Made by a program: the position numbers and the translations under genes. This document shows, piece after piece, positions 3,839 through 37,580 of a stretch of DNA of 64,000 nucleotides; position 1 is the first letter of the stretch; every line of letters begins with the position of its first letter. Where the stretch lies: the sequence record MK373782.1, one strand, 5' to 3'. This DNA comes from Escherichia phage vB_EcoM_KAW3E185. The notes beneath the pieces were generated by a model. That model had not been told where the DNA came from. It saw only the letters and a program-made list of their open reading frames with translations, and searched no databases.

Positions 3839-4837
3839 TTATGATACTAATTCAATCCATGCAGGACGCAGAACATCTTGCACCATTCGGACTAATTCTT
3901 TCTTAACAAGATTCGGATTATCAGATGATGTTAATACAATACCTTCGCGAGAAGTTTCTTCCAGAATATCTTGAACAGTCAATCCCATCACTTTACCAAA
4001 ATCTTTTGGCGTTACAGCACCAATCTTAGAAATAACATTATTAACACGATTTAATGTAACATAACAAGCTAGAACATCAAGCAAGTTTTTGTCAATTTCG
4101 GTTAATGGAACCTGAGTTTTAATAGGCTTATCAGACTTTTTCTTTTCACTGAATTTAGAGTTCTTGCACTTAATAGCTACACGAGTACCGTTTGGCAGCC
4201 ATTTAGGGAAACAAGGCTTCAGAACATAACCTTCTGCCGTATTATCACCAATAACATTAGCATCAAATACACAATTATTTGCTTCGACAAGGTCTTCTGA
4301 CGCAGTAGCATTATAAGCGGCTAAGACGGAATCAAGGTCATTTGGAATCATGATAAGAGAATCAAATGTTCCACGACCAAGCATTGGTGCCATTTTAAAA
4401 CCGAATTCATTACAGAAATCTTGCATTTCGTAATCGGTCAAATACGTATTATCACCACTTTCTGTATTGATAAGGATATCGAACACATAAAAATCTTTTT
4501 CACCGTAGTCAACACCTTTCTGGATTCCACCACCAGCGAATTCACCGAATACTTGATATGATACGGCTCGAGCTGTGTACATGAATTCCTGAGCGGCTTT
4601 AATAGCTTTATCATACTTCTTGAGTACGATTTCATAACCATAAAAATCTTCTGCTGGAAGAATAGGGCCTGTGCGCTTGGCGCATGTGACGTTGTCACGT
4701 TCAATTATTAACGAGAAGTTAGTCCCATGGATTTTCTCACGTGCTACCCAAACACCAGTAGTCAAACCATTAGTGTAGAGTTTTTCAATAAACTTAGAGT
4801 TGTAGTGGTTTTCAAGACTGCTGTATTTCTTAAACAT
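3839..4837 (-). CDS. rnlB: RNA ligase 2 (RnlB, gp24.1)
   Basis: 332 aa; strong match to T4 Rnl2 ([21 protein letters not shown]…[13 protein letters not shown], ligase motif KxHGxN). Confidence 0.9.
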
Positions 4838-4956
4838 AAATCACCATTATAAATAATAATATCAAAATAATTAGCAGAGACTCTGTCTCTGACCGGATGT
4901 TTAATTTGAATAGATAGAACCTAGATTCATTATACCATCAAAAATTGTAAAGCATA

Positions 4957-5208
4957 TTAGAACTTGATTTCTATCCAATGACCATCACGCTGGTCGTGAT
5001 TAATTTTGTACTGAAAGCCGTTATCACGAAGCCATTGACCGACTTGTTCAGTTATAGTTAAATCGTTCTTTGACGGGTAGTACGTGAATTGTGTCTGGCC
5101 TTTGTCAGCGGCTTTCTCTGCCATCACAGAGAAGTTAGTAATAAAATCACTCAACAAATTAGCTTTAGTGGCCAGTGCCCTTTCTCTTAATTCCTGTGCA
5201 AAACTCAT
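4957..5208 (-). CDS. Hypothetical protein (24.2-like)
   Basis: 83-aa ORF in conserved position, overlaps next ORF by 4 nt. Confidence 0.5.
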   Translation of the reverse strand: MSFAQELRERALATKANLLSDFITNFSVMAEKAADKGQTQFTYYPSKNDLTITEQVGQWLRDNGFQYKINHDQRDGHWIEIKF

Positions 5209-27177: not shown

Positions 27178-27486
27178 TTACATAAGAAGCAAACGTTCTA
27201 CCGGAGTACCATCAACCGAAATTACTTTATCAAGGCGGAAAGAACGCCACTGACCTAACTTGGTATCGAATGCTCGAACTGATTCACGAGGTTCAGAACG
27301 AACTTCTGATGCCGGATTGTTATTTTCATATTTGACTTCAAGTTCATCGCGAGAAGCAAACATAGTGCGTACCTCACCGTTAGCCTTTTCAAATACAATA
27401 CAATGAACGCCTACAGACAGAATAGTTTTAATACGTTCACGAAGAACCATAGTTTCTTTTTCAGTTAAAATCATATTATTCACCAC
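27178..27486 (-). CDS. Hypothetical protein (31.1-like)
   Basis: 102-aa ORF between cd and 31. Confidence 0.5.
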   Translation of the reverse strand: MVNNMILTEKETMVLRERIKTILSVGVHCIVFEKANGEVRTMFASRDELEVKYENNNPASEVRSEPRESVRAFDTKLGQWRSFRLDKVISVDGTPVERLLLM

Positions 27487-28057
27487 AAAAGTTTCGGATT
27501 TGTTCCCAATTCAGAGAACGAAGATTATTACGAGAGTACTGAATTACTTCAATACCGGCTTGTTTTAGAATGTCTGCCCAATTTTCAGGAGATCTGTCAT
27601 ATAATTCTGCGTATACAACCTTTTTAATACCTGACTGTGTAATAGCTTTAGTGCAATCAGGACATGGAGAAAGCGTCGTATATAATGTAGCACCTTCAAT
27701 AGAATTACCTTTACGAGCTGCAAACAAAATTGCATTCAATTCAGCATGGATTTCGTTATTAGCAGACCATGCACTATGAGCGGCCCGATGTTCTTTAGCC
27801 AAAACAAAATTATCTGCCCGTCCAAATGCTGTAGTGCCTTCTTTATGCCCAGCAACGATGACCGGGCTTGGTTTATTCTTCAACCAACCGTTTTCGGATG
27901 CATGTTCGCAACAGTTTGTACCACCTGAAGGAGAGCCATTATAACCTGTAGAAATAATGCGTCCATCTTTTTCAATGACGGCGCCAACTTTCCATGAACA
28001 ACATTTTGATTCTTGAGAAATCAGATATGCAATCTGAAGGTATGTGCTAGCTTTCAT
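27476..28057 (-). CDS. cd: dCMP deaminase
   Basis: 193 aa; zinc-binding deaminase motifs HAELNAI and SPCPDC. Confidence 0.95.
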   Translation of the reverse strand: MKASTYLQIAYLISQESKCCSWKVGAVIEKDGRIISTGYNGSPSGGTNCCEHASENGWLKNKPSPVIVAGHKEGTTAFGRADNFVLAKEHRAAHSAWSANNEIHAELNAILFAARKGNSIEGATLYTTLSPCPDCTKAITQSGIKKVVYAELYDRSPENWADILKQAGIEVIQYSRNNLRSLNWEQIRNFCGE

Positions 28058-29049
28058 TATTGAACCTTATTAATATAAGTTAACAGCTCTTTAGTTTGTT
28101 CCCAACTGATGCACGCATCGGTAACGGAAACGCCATAGGACATATTATCAGAAATTTTTTGATTTCCTTCATGTAGGAACGATTCTATCATAATTCCTTT
28201 GACCAAATCATTAGCTGCTAAATTTTTACCAATACCAATTTGATTGCTATAATGCCCATCAGCGTTTGCATGGCTACAGTCAACCATTACATAATGATTC
28301 AGACCTACTGCCCTTGCTTTGTTAGAAGCTTCTTGAATATCAGAAGAATGATAGTTCGGGCCGTTGGTCCCGCCACGCAATACGATATGCGTATTCTGAT
28401 TACCTTCAGCTTCAACAATGCCTACAGTACCATCGACGTCCATACCCATATACCGATGAGGCCAGGCGGCACTATACATCGCGTCTGTAGCTACTTTAAT
28501 AGAACCATTGGTTGCGTTCTTGAAGCCTACGCACATCGGTAGACCTGAAGCAATTTCACGATGTGTCTGACTTTCAGTCGTACGGGCGCCAATAGCAACC
28601 CATGAGAAAATACCAGAAAGATACTTAATCGTGAATGGGTCTAATACTTCAGTTGCTAATGGAAGTCCCATACGTAGAAGTTTACGACACAATGTTCGTG
28701 CAACTATAAGACCGTGGTTCATATCAAAACTTCCGTCAAGATATGGATCATTTACAAGACCTTTCCAACCTACGGTAGTTCGAGGCTTTTCAAAATAAAC
28801 GCGCATCACTAACAGAACATTAGGAAGACGAGTTTGAAGTTCAGCCAGACGTTTGCCGTATTCAACAGCAGCAATAGGGTCATGAATTGAACAAGGACCT
28901 ACAACAATAAGTTTGCGTGGGTCTTCACCATTCATAATCGAATTAACTTGTTCGCGATGAGAAGCCACTTGTGATGCGTAAGCTTCCGACAAAGGAATAA
29001 TCTCAGCCAGTTCTTTTGGAGAAATAAGTTTTCCGACGACAGGTAACAT
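28057..29049 (-). CDS. 3-deoxy-D-arabino-heptulosonate-7-phosphate (DAHP) synthase, class I (AroG/F/H-like)
   Basis: 330 aa; conserved AroG blocks GPCSIHD, KPRTTVGWKGLVNDP, IGARTTESQTHRE, DCSHANA, ESFLHEGNQ, VTDACISWE. Confidence 0.9.
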   Translation of the reverse strand: MLPVVGKLISPKELAEIIPLSEAYASQVASHREQVNSIMNGEDPRKLIVVGPCSIHDPIAAVEYGKRLAELQTRLPNVLLVMRVYFEKPRTTVGWKGLVNDPYLDGSFDMNHGLIVARTLCRKLLRMGLPLATEVLDPFTIKYLSGIFSWVAIGARTTESQTHREIASGLPMCVGFKNATNGSIKVATDAMYSAAWPHRYMGMDVDGTVGIVEAEGNQNTHIVLRGGTNGPNYHSSDIQEASNKARAVGLNHYVMVDCSHANADGHYSNQIGIGKNLAANDLVKGIMIESFLHEGNQKISDNMSYGVSVTDACISWEQTKELLTYINKVQ

Positions 29050-29169
29050 AACAATCCTTAGGAGATATAAACAGATTCTGATTCAACAATACCTTTAACC
29101 GGATTAGACAGGCTAAGTTGGTAGTGCTCAGATTTATGACCATTCTCGATAGTAATGAGATAGCTCTCA

Positions 29170-29406
29170 TTATAGTGTTCCATATACTCGAGTTGCTTCA
29201 ACAAGACCATCACTGCATAATTTAAGATTAGTAATTTGGTCACCATCTTTAGGATTAACGATTATGAGAAAAGAACGTGGAGATTCTTGAATAACTCGTA
29301 ATGTTGCATCTTGGAAACGTTCAGACACTTTATTGATGAGTGCTTGAGCAAATTCTTTTACTTTAATCTGAAATTCGTGTACTGTAATTGGGTTTTCACT
29401 TAGCAT
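29170..29406 (-). CDS. Hypothetical protein (cd.x-like)
   Basis: 78-aa ORF with early promoter upstream. Confidence 0.4.
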   Translation of the reverse strand: MLSENPITVHEFQIKVKEFAQALINKVSERFQDATLRVIQESPRSFLIIVNPKDGDQITNLKLCSDGLVEATRVYGTL

Positions 29407-29434: not shown

Positions 29435-29464
29435 ATAGTATCACAACTCCACCATGTTGTAAAC
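29435..29464 (-). promoter_or_regulatory. Early promoter (GTTTAC-18-TACTAT)
   Basis: Consensus match. Confidence 0.5.

Positions 29465-30145: not shown

Positions 30146-30146
<1 letters not shown>
29955..30146 (-). CDS. Hypothetical protein (cd.x-like)
   Basis: 63-aa ORF, ATGA overlap with pseT start. Confidence 0.4.
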
Positions 30147-31232
<1,086 letters not shown>

Positions 31233-34615: not shown

Positions 34616-35110
34616 TTAGAAATATTTTTTGTATGAATTGATTACATTTTGGTCTACATCATTATCAATTTGTGCAACAAGATAAGAACTGATTTCAACT
34701 TCTTGTGGGGCTGCTTGAACCAAATCAGAGTTCAAATACTCACGAATCCATGGAATAGGATGACGAGTTGATACGTCTTTAAGAGGACATGGCAGACCAC
34801 AACTACGCATACGAGACACGGTAAGATAATCCACAAATTCACTTAGGATTTTAACATTTAGACCTGGAAGAGCACCATCTTTAAACAAGTGTTCAGCCCA
34901 TTCTTTTTCTTGAGCGTTAACTTCCATGAAAATATCAACTGCTTCTTGTTCACACTCTTGAGCAATTTTGACCCATTCATCGCCGTCTTCGCCATCTTGT
35001 AAAGCACGAATAATATATTGAGTGCCCTTGAGGTGGAGCTGTTCATCACGAGCAATGAACTTCATAATCTTGGCATTACCTTCCATGATTTCCATATTCT
35101 TATGGAAGTT
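34616..35110 (-). CDS. nrdB: Ribonucleotide reductase beta subunit NrdB, exon 2 (upstream boundary approximate)
   Basis: R2 motif MEGNAKIMKFIARDEQLHLKGTQ; frame stays open upstream of the first ATG to about 35146, so the 5' end is a splice junction rather than a start codon. Confidence 0.7.
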   Translation of the reverse strand, partial: NFHKNMEIMEGNAKIMKFIARDEQLHLKGTQYIIRALQDGEDGDEWVKIAQECEQEAVDIFMEVNAQEKEWAEHLFKDGALPGLNVKILSEFVDYLTVSRMRSCGLPCPLKDVSTRHPIPWIREYLNSDLVQAAPQEVEISSYLVAQIDNDVDQNVINSYKKYF

Positions 35111-36214
35111 AAAGGTACCGTTATGTTCGATTGAGCTCGCTAATTCTCAACCCGTTCTCTTATGAACTGCTACATATTACTATGCAGACCAGACTATATC
35201 ACAATCCCAGAGGGATTCTCCCCATTTCGAGTCGCTTGACCCTACGTCCGAAGACTAGTCGTTGAACCTTGCTTTGCAATTGTCGCCGTGCCATCGTTTA
35301 TATGTTGATGGTGATAAATCTTTCTTATCACAATATGGACAATTCAATTGAATTCTATTTGGATTTAATTTACATCTGTCATTATGTTTTAGATAAAATC
35401 CAGGACCTTTACCAATGTGACCGCAGAAATCACATGTGATTTCTTTTTGTGCAGGATGGGTCCCGTTCTTAACCATTTCTAATGTTTTTGCTGATGTTCT
35501 TTTCTTATGGTCTTCTGACAAGAAATGATGTGAACCGTCATTTACCCGTTTTGATTGAGTTTCTGACTGCATTTTACCACCGCAAAATACATGAGTACCT
35601 TCTTTTATAGCTGCAATATTGCGTTCTTTAACTTTTGCAATATGCTCAGCTTGTTGAAAATTATGTATACCTAATGCAACTCTATTTAAATTAGATTTAC
35701 GCTGTATTTCACCGTCTAAAAGATGAAATGTACCATTTTCTATCTTAGATTTAATAGAGGCAATATTTTTAGCTCGTACTTCAGGGATATTAAAAATCTG
35801 GATTTCTCTAGATTTTGCGGCTTTAGAAGCTAATTCAGAAATTTCTTCAGGAGAATATTTCATTCTAAGCTTTATAGCATGACAAGCCTGGTAATCTTTT
35901 TGAGCTAAATGTATATCATAATGTTCCTGTATAGAAAGGCACATCAAATTATCTAAATCATTATTTTCACGGTTACCGTCTTTATGATGGATTTCGTATG
36001 TTCTTCCATCAGAATCTTTAGGTATAGGTCCGTTAGCATCTATCCAAATTTTTCTATAGTTCAATTGTGCATCCTCTTAAAAGTATAATCATATTTATAT
36101 TATACTAATTAAAGGTGCAAGCAAAACCTTGGCTGCTAGTTTTCCTATAAAGGACTTTCCAGCAATTAAAGGAGTTTTCGATAAACGTTACCGTTTAAAG
36201 GCGCATTTTACGCA
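35111..36214 (-). mobile_element. Group I self-splicing intron in nrdB with embedded HNH endonuclease ORF (boundaries ±30 nt)
   Basis: About 1.1 kb interrupts the NrdB reading frame between …RFYVSFA and …MEGNAK; contains a free-standing HNH ORF. Confidence 0.6.
35255..36064 (-). CDS. Intron-encoded HNH homing endonuclease (I-TevIII-like, intact)
   Basis: 269 aa with HNH motif YEIHHKDGNRENN and C-terminal Cys-rich zinc finger. Confidence 0.8.
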   Translation of the reverse strand: MNYRKIWIDANGPIPKDSDGRTYEIHHKDGNRENNDLDNLMCLSIQEHYDIHLAQKDYQACHAIKLRMKYSPEEISELASKAAKSREIQIFNIPEVRAKNIASIKSKIENGTFHLLDGEIQRKSNLNRVALGIHNFQQAEHIAKVKERNIAAIKEGTHVFCGGKMQSETQSKRVNDGSHHFLSEDHKKRTSAKTLEMVKNGTHPAQKEITCDFCGHIGKGPGFYLKHNDRCKLNPNRIQLNCPYCDKKDLSPSTYKRWHGDNCKARFND

Positions 36215-36885
36215 AAAGATACATAAAAACGAATAGCTTCTAAGGCATTAATAACGTGTAAACAGAGGTAAAGAGACTTCATTAAAGCACGTTTAGCTTC
36301 GGCTTCTTGTTTAATAGCTCGGTTTAAACGAAAGTCGGCATCAGGAGATTCTTTAGCTAGTTCTACAAATTCTTTAGCGTTTTCCCAATAACGAGCTTTA
36401 ACCAGAACATCATCATAATATCGTCCGATAGATTCGGCACGCTTCATAATAGCTTCATCTAATACAATCTCATCAAACACCTTCGATGGATCTGTATAAA
36501 GATTTCGCATAATATGAGTATATGAACGAGAGTGAATAGTTTCACTGAAAGTCCATGTAGCAACCCATGTATCTAATGAAGGGTCTGAAAGCAATGACAT
36601 AAGTACCGCAGATGGTGCTCTACCTTGGATAGAATCTAATAATGATTGATACTTAAGGTTGTTGGTAAAGATGTCCTGTTGGAACTGTGGAAGCTTATTA
36701 AACTGGGCCGAATCCAACATCAAGTTTACCTCTTCGGGGCGCCAGAAAAAACTGATCTGCCGCTCAATGAGTTCTTCAAATACTCGATGTCGTTGAATAT
36801 CATATCGAGCTAAACCTAATCCAGAACCAAAGAACATCGGTTCATTCAAAACATCGACTTGTTGTGTGTTAAAAACTGTACTCAT
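36215..36885 (-). CDS. nrdB: Ribonucleotide reductase beta subunit NrdB, exon 1 (3' boundary approximate)
   Basis: N-terminal R2 sequence ending …EAIRFYVSFA, then in-frame stop inside the intron. Confidence 0.7.
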
Positions 36886-37580
36886 TTAGAATCCTTAAAT
36901 TTACATTTATCATAATGCCATCTTAAAGCATTGCCTTTATTAACTTTCTTACCACAGTGCGGGCAAGGTGGATACTCAGTCCTTTGTTTAGTCTTCAAAG
37001 AAATTAAATCACGCGTTTCTTTGCTATGAGGAACATCTCTTGTAGGAGAAATTGTACCATACATAGGGTTAAGCACACCAACTTTAGCAGAAGATATGTT
37101 CTTTTTAGCTTCCTCTGATTTGGGCTTTCTCATCTTTTTCTTAGTTTCTTCGCTTTTAGCCCTTCCTTTGGTTGCCGCCGATATTTTGTGTTTGGTTTCT
37201 TCTGTTAAACGCAGACCTGTTTTCGCTTTTGATATTTTCAGTCTCGTTTCTTCAGAAATGACCGTACCTTTGCGAAATTGTGAATTTAACTTCTTTGCAT
37301 GGGCATATATTTTAGAATGAACTTTATAATGACGTTTCTTAGTTCCTTTCATATTGCACATCATGAAAAATGCGAATATAACAGATTTTACCGGATAAAT
37401 CTTTGATAAAATAGCATGCGCTATAAAATGTTCTCTAGCTGTTAATTCAACTAAATTTTCCTTATCATCAGTACCTCCCATACATCTAGGTAAGATATGA
37501 TGATTCTCTTTATACCCTGATAAAGGTTCCCGAGCCTGAGCTCGGGAAATTAGGTCGTTATAGATTTTTTGATAATTCAT
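36882..37580 (-). CDS. mobE: HNH homing endonuclease (MobE-like) between nrdA and nrdB
   Basis: HNH motif ENHHILPRCMGGTDDKENLV; C-terminal CPHC zinc finger; T4 mobE position. Confidence 0.75.
   Translation of the reverse strand: MNYQKIYNDLISRAQAREPLSGYKENHHILPRCMGGTDDKENLVELTAREHFIAHAILSKIYPVKSVIFAFFMMCNMKGTKKRHYKVHSKIYAHAKKLNSQFRKGTVISEETRLKISKAKTGLRLTEETKHKISAATKGRAKSEETKKKMRKPKSEEAKKNISSAKVGVLNPMYGTISPTRDVPHSKETRDLISLKTKQRTEYPPCPHCGKKVNKGNALRWHYDKCKFKDSK

Follow-up and report, generated by a model that had tools for sequence, protein, structure and literature searches.

Why should a T4-like phage carry one single enzyme of the shikimate pathway? This question is raised by an open reading frame (ORF) found in a stretch of 64,000 nucleotides (nt) from Escherichia phage vB_EcoM_KAW3E185 (MK373782.1), which as a whole is called the window here. 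The phage is an RB69-like Mosigvirus of the T4 family, and the initial annotation had described the ORF as a class I 3-deoxy-7-phosphoheptulonate synthase (DAHP synthase), the entry enzyme of the pathway, inserted between cd and pseT. The best overall explanation, to which we assign a probability of roughly 60%, is that the gene would provide an early-expressed and deregulated DAHP synthase, which is related to AroF and resident in phages. The gene call alone adds nothing, since the family is already annotated, is represented by a PHROG and has been mentioned earlier as a putative auxiliary metabolic gene (AMG). It is the remodelling of the inhibitor site that turns this vague label into a specific hypothesis, namely that aromatic biosynthesis would be uncoupled from the regulation of the host.

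The ORF was found exactly at the position given for it, encodes 330 amino acids (aa) and is read from the minus strand, which the initial annotation had left unspecified. All six motifs that had been named are present in the translation (GPCSIHD, KPRTTVGWKGLVNDP, IGARTTESQ, DCSHANA, ESFLHEGNQ and VTDACISWE). A profile search revealed a significant similarity to DAHP synthases, with a match to Pfam PF00793 (E 5e-75, 252.3 bits against a cut-off of 25.5) and to the aroFGH equivalog TIGR00034 of NCBIfam (427.7 bits against 173.2). On the subfamily level, the AroF model NF009395 was passed (455.1 bits against 343), whereas the AroG equivalog NF006723 (363.2 bits against 568) and the AroH subfamily NF009396 (386 bits against 463) were not. 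Furthermore, residues 1-330 match positions 8-337 of the 341 positions of PHROG 5045 (E 3.2e-182), and the best sequence match among solved structures is the Tyr-sensitive AroF of E. coli (6agm, E 5e-105). An AlphaFold2 model based on a 60-sequence alignment displays a predicted local distance difference test score of 92.6 and a predicted template-modelling (TM) score of 0.92. Foldseek superimposed this model on the solved enzymes 4HSO, 5CKS, 1GG1 and 1KFL with TM-scores of 0.95-0.96 and a root mean square deviation (rmsd) of 1.4-1.6 Å, and the fold is the (beta/alpha)8 barrel with the decorations of type I-alpha. The proposed class I assignment therefore holds and can be narrowed to type I-alpha.

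The active site has been kept. The metal ligands C53, H260, E289 and D311 align with C61, H268, E302 and D326 of AroG, and no phage homologue deviates from them. The residues binding phosphoenolpyruvate (PEP) and erythrose-4-phosphate (E4P) are also present, namely R83, K88-P89-R90-T91 (KPRT), A155-R156, K177 and R225, the counterparts of which in AroG are R92, K97-T100, A164-R165, K186 and R234. On the level of the alignment, all metal, PEP and E4P residues are conserved across 6-7 phage genera, and no substitution was found at the metal- or PEP-binding positions. This agrees with the initial impression of a catalytically intact protein, and we infer that the ORF encodes a genuine and catalytically competent type I-alpha DAHP synthase, which would convert PEP and E4P to DAHP and inorganic phosphate.

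The inhibitor site presents a different picture. In AroG and AroF, the inhibitor sits between two subunits and is lined by Pro150 as well as by N-terminal residues of the partner subunit (residues of this site are numbered as in AroG, i.e., 150, 151 and 180, unless the numbering of the window protein is stated). N-terminal residues reportedly matter here, the AroF variant N8K and a deletion of Ile11 being said to have been described by Jossek et al. in 2001. Q151/Q152 and S180/S181 contact the main chain of the inhibitor, and AroG becomes feedback-resistant by P150L, by S180F and by changes of Gln151 (PMC9529685). In the window protein, Pro150 is replaced by Ile141, Gln151 by Lys142 and Ser180 by Pro171, and the positions of D6/D7 in AroG (N7/N8 in AroF) are absent through the shorter N-terminus. 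The intact site for aromatic amino acids, as it is known from the AroF, AroG and AroH isozymes, is not present in this protein. The Gly at the AroF-type Tyr/Phe selectivity position is found, with G202 corresponding to G212 of AroF.

A survey of the 120 best database homologues and seven phage loci revealed how far these exchanges extend. All 31 sequences of the phage clade have a short N-terminus, Ile (in one case Pro) at position 150, Lys (in one case Arg) at 151 and Pro at 180, and the complete I-K-P combination is present in 29 of them; the T4-like loci from IMG/VR repeat this signature. It does not occur in any of the 96 nearest bacterial homologues, which without exception carry N, D or E at position 7, P or V at 150, Q at 151 and S or T at 180. 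The initial annotation had linked feedback inhibition to the lack of about 12-20 N-terminal residues. This number was wrong, as the N-terminus is shorter by 8 residues than that of AroG, by 9 than that of AroF and by 7 than that of AroH, and no in-frame start codon is present upstream of the ATG before the preceding stop. The idea itself, that feedback control is affected, has become stronger, because all members of the phage clade combine the shorter N-terminus with exchanges at two residues that contact the inhibitor. Judged from these alignments, the feedback-inhibition site appears to be dismantled in the phage DAHP synthases, while the catalytic site appears untouched.

A similar situation is observed in a second phage lineage. 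Aeromonas phage HJ05 and three metagenomic relatives carry A-H/S-P at 150/151/180, whereas 104 of the 117 nearest other homologues keep P-Q-S. This lineage groups with the T4-like clade in merely 5 of 50 bootstraps. The HJ05 protein (387 aa, unannotated) resembles the window protein in being a phage DAHP synthase of type I-alpha with intact catalytic residues and a non-canonical A-H-P at 150/151/180. In contrast to the window protein, to which it is 38% identical, it belongs to an independent lineage, has a long N-terminus and is found in a 79-kb genome type and in another gene context. The loss of the Gln and Ser contacts seems to have happened independently in the two phage lineages, in both cases with an exchange of Ser to Pro and with every catalytic residue kept. 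We regard the chances as about even that phage DAHP synthases are naturally deregulated, that at least two lineages (T4-like and HJ05-like) convergently destroyed the feedback site while keeping catalysis, and that a single early gene would override the allosteric and transcriptional control which the host exerts on the shikimate pathway during infection.

A DAHP synthase encoded at 3956..5005 of the 262-kb contig IMGVR_UViG_3300028829_003504 (L030), a probable jumbo phage, is intermediate in its inhibitor site, with P-N-P and an N-terminus of 13 residues. L030 and the likewise P-N-P-containing L031 are not supported as a third independent lineage, since they join the T4-like clade in 34 of 50 bootstraps; they are treated here as a deep, less-derived branch. 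In L030, the gene is located between those of a protein with a type IB topoisomerase domain (phrog_23460) and of thymidylate kinase. A NUDIX hydrolase is encoded close by, and further neighbours belong to phage-only PHROGs. This represents another case of a DAHP synthase among genes of nucleotide metabolism. The aroF matches in records of 'Acinetobacter phage MD-2021a' were rejected as phage lineages, since cobS and cobT as neighbours point to bacterial DNA. In CAKLQH020000056.1, one of these records, aroF has cobS, cobT and a gene for alpha-ribazole phosphatase as neighbours, which is the context of a bacterial chromosome; the designation as a phage seems mistaken, and the record ought to be left out of any count of phage DAHP synthases. 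Most other IMG/VR matches keep P-Q-S, and many of them stem from bins of giant-virus metagenome-assembled genomes or are probably cellular; they were not used as evidence for or against. Among the giant-virus contigs (L034-L097), type I-alpha DAHP synthases with 40-48% identity and the canonical P-Q-S are found in dozens of bins.

Concerning the origin of the gene, neighbour-joining trees were obtained from a distance calculation with sets of 30 and 50 bootstraps. The DAHP synthases of T4-like phages are monophyletic in all of them (30/30 and 50/50), and their sister is a group containing the enterobacterial AroF. A derivation from the enterobacterial aro genes, which the initial annotation had brought up, is seen as a relationship to AroF and not as a recent capture. 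A recent uptake from an E. coli host was ruled out by several observations. The window protein shares 51, 47 and 44% identity with AroF, AroG and AroH of E. coli, respectively, and its nearest bacterial homologues, which come from scattered taxa, reach no more than 51-55%. The GC content of the gene is 41%, as in its neighbours, compared to 52% in the aro genes of the host, and a phage-type copy is present in 0 of 5,426 complete E. coli genomes. Furthermore, the identity to the window protein decreases across phages in parallel with the values for the neighbouring cd and gp31, and the ratio of nonsynonymous to synonymous substitution rates (dN/dS), which lies at about 0.15 with a range of 0.13-0.24 over a saturated synonymous divergence, reveals purifying selection. 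These comparisons argue for an old, selected and phage-resident gene.

The gene is also not the rarity it had been taken for. A tblastn search detected a homologue in 212 phage records, 139 of which are at least 95% and many 100% identical. Many of the identical copies bear the name phospho-2-dehydro-3-deoxyheptonate aldolase, DAHP synthetase or aroF, and some records still list the product as a hypothetical protein. With about 139 public phage records, many of them annotated as DAHP synthase, and with PHROG 5045 at hand, the gene in these phages is an already known and annotated family. The representative of a 98%-identical cluster (P0001) is named '[Escherichia coli]' by NCBI, though it lies on a contig of 170,875 bp, a length that corresponds to a phage genome. 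A position close to cd is also found in Kanagawavirus (Enterobacter, Edwardsiella), Klebsiella T4-like phages, Winklervirus (Serratia), Kagamiyamavirus (EcS1) and Bragavirus (Proteus), i.e., in at least six T4-like genera, and where a homologue of cd.1 is present (X20, EcS1, PM2) the order is cd.2 - DAHP synthase - cd.1 - cd. For Mosigvirus phiC120, the DAHP synthetase domain has been noted (PMC8022965), and a role as an amino-acid AMG has been hypothesised in a Kanagawavirus genome paper (PMC11845039). The clade-wide remodelling of the inhibitor site is apparently unreported in the literature searched.

Is the gene likely to be expressed at an early stage? The order of genes in the window is pseT - small ORFs - cd.3 - cd.2 - DAHP synthase - cd - 31.1 - 31 (Table 1). 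Cd is 95% identical to its RB69 and 72% to its T4 homologue, and the respective values for Cd.2 are 95 and 65%. That T4 has only small cd.x ORFs at this position is correct, as the T4 record contains cd.1-cd.5 here with cd.1 at the place of the DAHP synthase; in RB69, cd.2 is directly followed by cd. The stop codon of the DAHP synthase gene and the ATG of cd share one base (TAATG overlap). The gene has its own Shine-Dalgarno sequence, as had been stated, which lies 5 nt before the ATG and overlaps the TAA (29058-29060) that closes the remnant cd.2 reading frame described below. Between cd.3 and cd.2, a sigma-70-type promoter is located that is near-identical to Pe133295, an early promoter marked in the T4 record, and a scan of the window detected no terminator-like site on the minus strand between this promoter and cd. 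Since the promoter is homologous to that of T4 and no terminator-like site was detected before cd, an early co-transcription of cd.2, the scar, the DAHP synthase gene and cd is a reasonable inference. This supports the early operon of the initial annotation, with the timing of expression predicted from the promoter homology.

The way in which the gene entered this locus can be followed by a comparison with RB69. The flanks are 94-96% identical on the nucleotide level, and the window contains an extra segment of 1.1 kb (28061..29154; BLAST breakpoints 28060/29155). The gene therefore represents a true insertion between cd and pseT, and it is accompanied by a recombination scar. The motif ATAATGA[A/G]AGCTA is present at both junctions of the window and as a single copy at the cd.2/cd junction of RB69. 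About 110 bp between the stop of the resident cd.2 and the start of the DAHP synthase gene code, in their own frame, for the C-terminal half of a Cd.2 protein. This frame differs from that of the resident cd.2, and the encoded peptide is unlike the C-terminus of the resident Mosigvirus/T4-type Cd.2; compared to Cd.2 of Entb_45 it displays 51% identity over 39 aligned positions (BLASTP, E 1e-7). In the GenBank record of the closely related phage JK45, a part of the scar is annotated as a 50-aa hypothetical protein. The taxonomy line of this record (NC_054940) reads Tequatrovirus jaykay, and the current NCBI taxonomy lists Mosigvirus jaykay.

Since a foreign-type cd.2 remnant lies between cd.2 and the DAHP synthase gene, the cassette came from another T4-like phage that already had the arrangement cd.2 - DAHP synthase - cd. 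The scar shows that this cassette, consisting of the foreign cd.2 3' remnant and the DAHP synthase gene, was put into an RB69-like cd.2/cd junction by phage-phage recombination, with the right crossover probably in homologous cd sequence and the left one at a short microhomology. RB69 would then either represent the empty site or have lost the cassette precisely through the direct repeat. By this route, the gene reached the Mosigvirus lineage through recombination with another T4-like phage, and the scar documents how T4-like phages of different genera exchanged a cassette at a junction of translational coupling.

What would such an enzyme do for the phage? DAHP synthase controls the flux at the entry into the shikimate pathway. 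The flux in E. coli is set mainly by the feedback inhibition of AroF, AroG and AroH and by TyrR/TrpR repression, and the later enzymes of the common pathway are largely constitutive. One deregulated DAHP synthase would suffice to reopen the pathway, and this may be the reason why phages carry this single gene of it. After the phage has shut off host gene expression, the amount of DAHP synthase and its state of inhibition in the cell would be fixed as they were at infection. The phage would then supply its own enzyme, which would not be canonically feedback-inhibited by Phe, Tyr or Trp. The entry into the pathway would thereby be freed from the repressed or inhibited host enzymes, and the supply of chorismate and aromatic amino acids would be kept up for phage protein synthesis, to the presumed benefit of the phage. 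Of the features by which an AMG is recognized, the phage context with its synteny and the purifying selection are seen, and expression is deduced solely from the promoter homology and the Shine-Dalgarno sequence. The aromatic content of the proteins encoded in the window (F 4.24, Y 4.15 and W 1.24%, 9.6% in total) fits weakly to a supply of aromatic amino acids. This composition is presumably somewhat Tyr-rich relative to E. coli. T4 has a similar composition and no DAHP synthase gene, which weakens this argument.

Several points weigh against this explanation. The clade-wide signature corresponds to a single event, to which one independent case is added, so that it carries the weight of two lineages and not of 31 sequences. 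Some bacterial homologues also depart from P-Q-S, e.g., Cobetia with A-A-G, and Lys142, instead of abolishing regulation, might give rise to a binding site for another effector. The searched literature contains no functional, activity or inhibition study of any phage DAHP synthase. The promoter was called by its homology to T4 only, because the consensus scan for sigma-70 sites yielded 11 sites compared to 14.4 expected by chance from shuffled sequence, which is no enrichment. Finally, T4 and RB69 lack the gene and thrive without it, and therefore any benefit would be conditional.

The remodelled pocket, with Lys142, Pro171, Ile141 and the shorter N-terminus, might bind another effector such as chorismate, prephenate or a phage-specific signal. 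This would explain why I-K-P is so strictly conserved across phage genera (29/31), beyond what the decay of a site needs, and why the pocket still carries its lining residues L170, V212 and G202. Nevertheless, we consider it unlikely, as no ligand can be deduced from the sequence, the deletion of the N-terminal lid takes away half of the inter-subunit pocket, and the different replacements in HJ05 (A-H-P) point to a loss rather than to a shared new specificity. A feedback-free enzyme would also suit a role as a carbon sink, in which the use of E4P (and PEP) pulls the non-oxidative pentose-phosphate pathway toward pentose phosphates for nucleotides and the shikimate products are incidental. Nucleotide genes indeed adjoin consistently, i.e., cd in T4-like phages as well as thymidylate kinase and the NUDIX hydrolase in L030. 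However, this scenario is purely inferential, DAHP would pile up or go on to chorismate regardless, and no transketolase or transaldolase genes lie alongside in the regions inspected, which renders it improbable. The same neighbourhood had led the initial annotation to suggest a link to p-aminobenzoate and folate, in which chorismate would be raised mainly for the thymidylate/hydroxymethyl-dCMP cycle or for the pteroyl-polyglutamate of the baseplate. The gene neighbourhood itself stands, since the DAHP synthase gene is translationally coupled to the adjoining cd and nrdAB, td and frd lie within ~12 kb. Support beyond this neighbourhood was not obtained, and the link stays a speculation with a slim chance: T4 gene clusters routinely combine unrelated functions, no pab or fol biosynthetic genes lie alongside, the folate-dependent enzymes and the baseplate are the same in T4 and RB69, which lack the gene, and it is general knowledge that folate works catalytically and that its amount in the virion is tiny.

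With a changed substrate, e.g., arabinose-5-phosphate or some other sugar phosphate, the enzyme would feed a sugar pathway such as the arabinosyl-hydroxymethylcytosine modification of DNA in RB69-like phages. This modification is present in Mosigvirus RB69 (PMC6024577), and DAHP synthases have PF00793 in common with 3-deoxy-D-manno-octulosonate 8-phosphate (KDO8P) synthases. The link to the modification was rejected, since RB69 itself is modified yet lacks the gene, and the gene is found in many other genera regardless of modification. A KDO8P synthase-like or otherwise altered specificity was rejected as well, because the KPRT motif and all substrate residues are those of AroF, AroG and AroH and the NCBIfam matches are specific for DAHP synthases; a new substrate is therefore very improbable. 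Hardly any weight is given to a neutral passenger or decaying moron without function for the phage, either. It would be in line with the patchy distribution, including the lack of the gene in T4 and RB69, and with the short direct repeat at the flanks, which would permit a precise loss. This reading is rejected by the dN/dS of 0.13-0.24 and by the conservation of the ORF and its catalytic residues across 6-7 genera, and the GC content ameliorated to the phage level as well as the kept Shine-Dalgarno sequence and translational coupling likewise speak against it.

If the DAHP synthase of these phages is indeed an early and deregulated enzyme, it would clearly illustrate how a metabolic enzyme captured by a virus can lose its allosteric control in the course of viral evolution. 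Furthermore, it would offer a natural feedback-resistant DAHP synthase for metabolic engineering and for strains producing aromatic compounds.

Table 1. Positions of the DAHP synthase gene, its surroundings and the split nrdB region in the window.
Feature	Position	Strand	Basis
DAHP synthase (3-deoxy-7-phosphoheptulonate synthase) coding sequence, 330 aa, type I-alpha, AroF-like	28057..29049	minus	ORF, profile, PDB and structure matches
cd (dCMP deaminase), directly downstream of the DAHP synthase gene	27476..28057	minus	
Right direct repeat ATAATGA[A]AGCTA, DAHP synthase stop/cd start junction	28048..28060	minus	junction alignment with RB69
Shine-Dalgarno sequence AAGGA, 5 nt upstream of the DAHP synthase ATG	29055..29059	minus	read from sequence
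Insertion scar, Kanagawavirus/Klebsiella-phage-type cd.2 3' remnant (SYLITIE...G.VES.SVY)	29061..29177	minus	tblastn, alignment, BLASTP
Left imperfect direct repeat ATAATGA[G]AGCTA, resident cd.2 stop/insert junction	29161..29173	minus	junction alignment with RB69
cd.2 homologue, 78 aa, first gene after the early promoter	29170..29406	minus	
Sigma-70-type early promoter, GTTTACA, 17-nt spacer, TACTAT, with TG	29435..29463	minus	consensus scan and T4 comparison
pseT (polynucleotide kinase/phosphatase), upstream edge of the cd.x block	30146..31045	minus	
Split nrdB region	34616..36885	minus	profile matches

Apart from this locus, an interruption of nrdB was observed in the window. An ORF at 36208..36885 corresponds to positions 9-141 and an ORF at 34616..35095 to positions 177-271 of the profile Ribonuc_red_sm. 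Between both parts, a 269-aa ORF with a TTG start (35255..36064) contains an HNH_3 endonuclease domain; JK45 annotates it as 'intron-like DNA endonuclease'. A scan of the whole window with Rfam gave no match at the gathering threshold, and below it a group I intron match was seen at 35170..35410 (33.9 bits compared to a gathering threshold of 50, E 2.6e-6). As in nrdB of T4, a group I intron that contains a homing endonuclease is the most likely cause of the interruption. Between nrdA and nrdB, a 232-aa ORF with a NUMOD3 motif is located on the minus strand (36882..37580). NUMOD3 is a DNA-binding module typical of homing endonucleases. JK45 has no gene between nrdB and nrdA, and the ORF is probably a free-standing mobile endonuclease that varies among Mosigviruses.

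Compared to known systems, the protein is identical (100%) to the 'aroF' product of O157 typing phage 3, and the PHROG 5045 and GenBank proteins of Mosigvirus, Kanagawavirus, Winklervirus, Bragavirus and Klebsiella T4-like phages represent the same cd-adjacent gene. Among cellular enzymes, it shares with E. coli AroF (6AGM/6AGL) the 51% identity, the metal, PEP and E4P residues, the Gly at the selectivity position and the NF009395 match. In contrast to AroF, it is 26 residues shorter, with 9 residues missing at the N-terminus, 9 at the C-terminus and internal deletions of 5 and 3 residues; N7/N8 are missing, and P151, Q152 and S181 are replaced by I, K and P, respectively. The Phe-sensitive AroG of E. 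coli and the DAHP synthase of N. meningitidis (1KFL, 1GG1, 4HSO) have the same fold (TM-score 0.95-0.96, rmsd ~1.5 Å), and 47% identity is shared with AroG, whereas D6, D7, P150, Q151 and S180 are absent or replaced. The closest parallel for these exchanges is given by the engineered feedback-resistant AroG variants (P150L, S180F and Q151 variants) and their AroF equivalents, since I141, K142 and P171 occupy the same positions, at which exchanges made in the laboratory abolish inhibition or weaken it (PMC9529685). Unlike the engineered enzymes, the phage protein carries other amino acids at these positions and, in addition, a truncated N-terminus.

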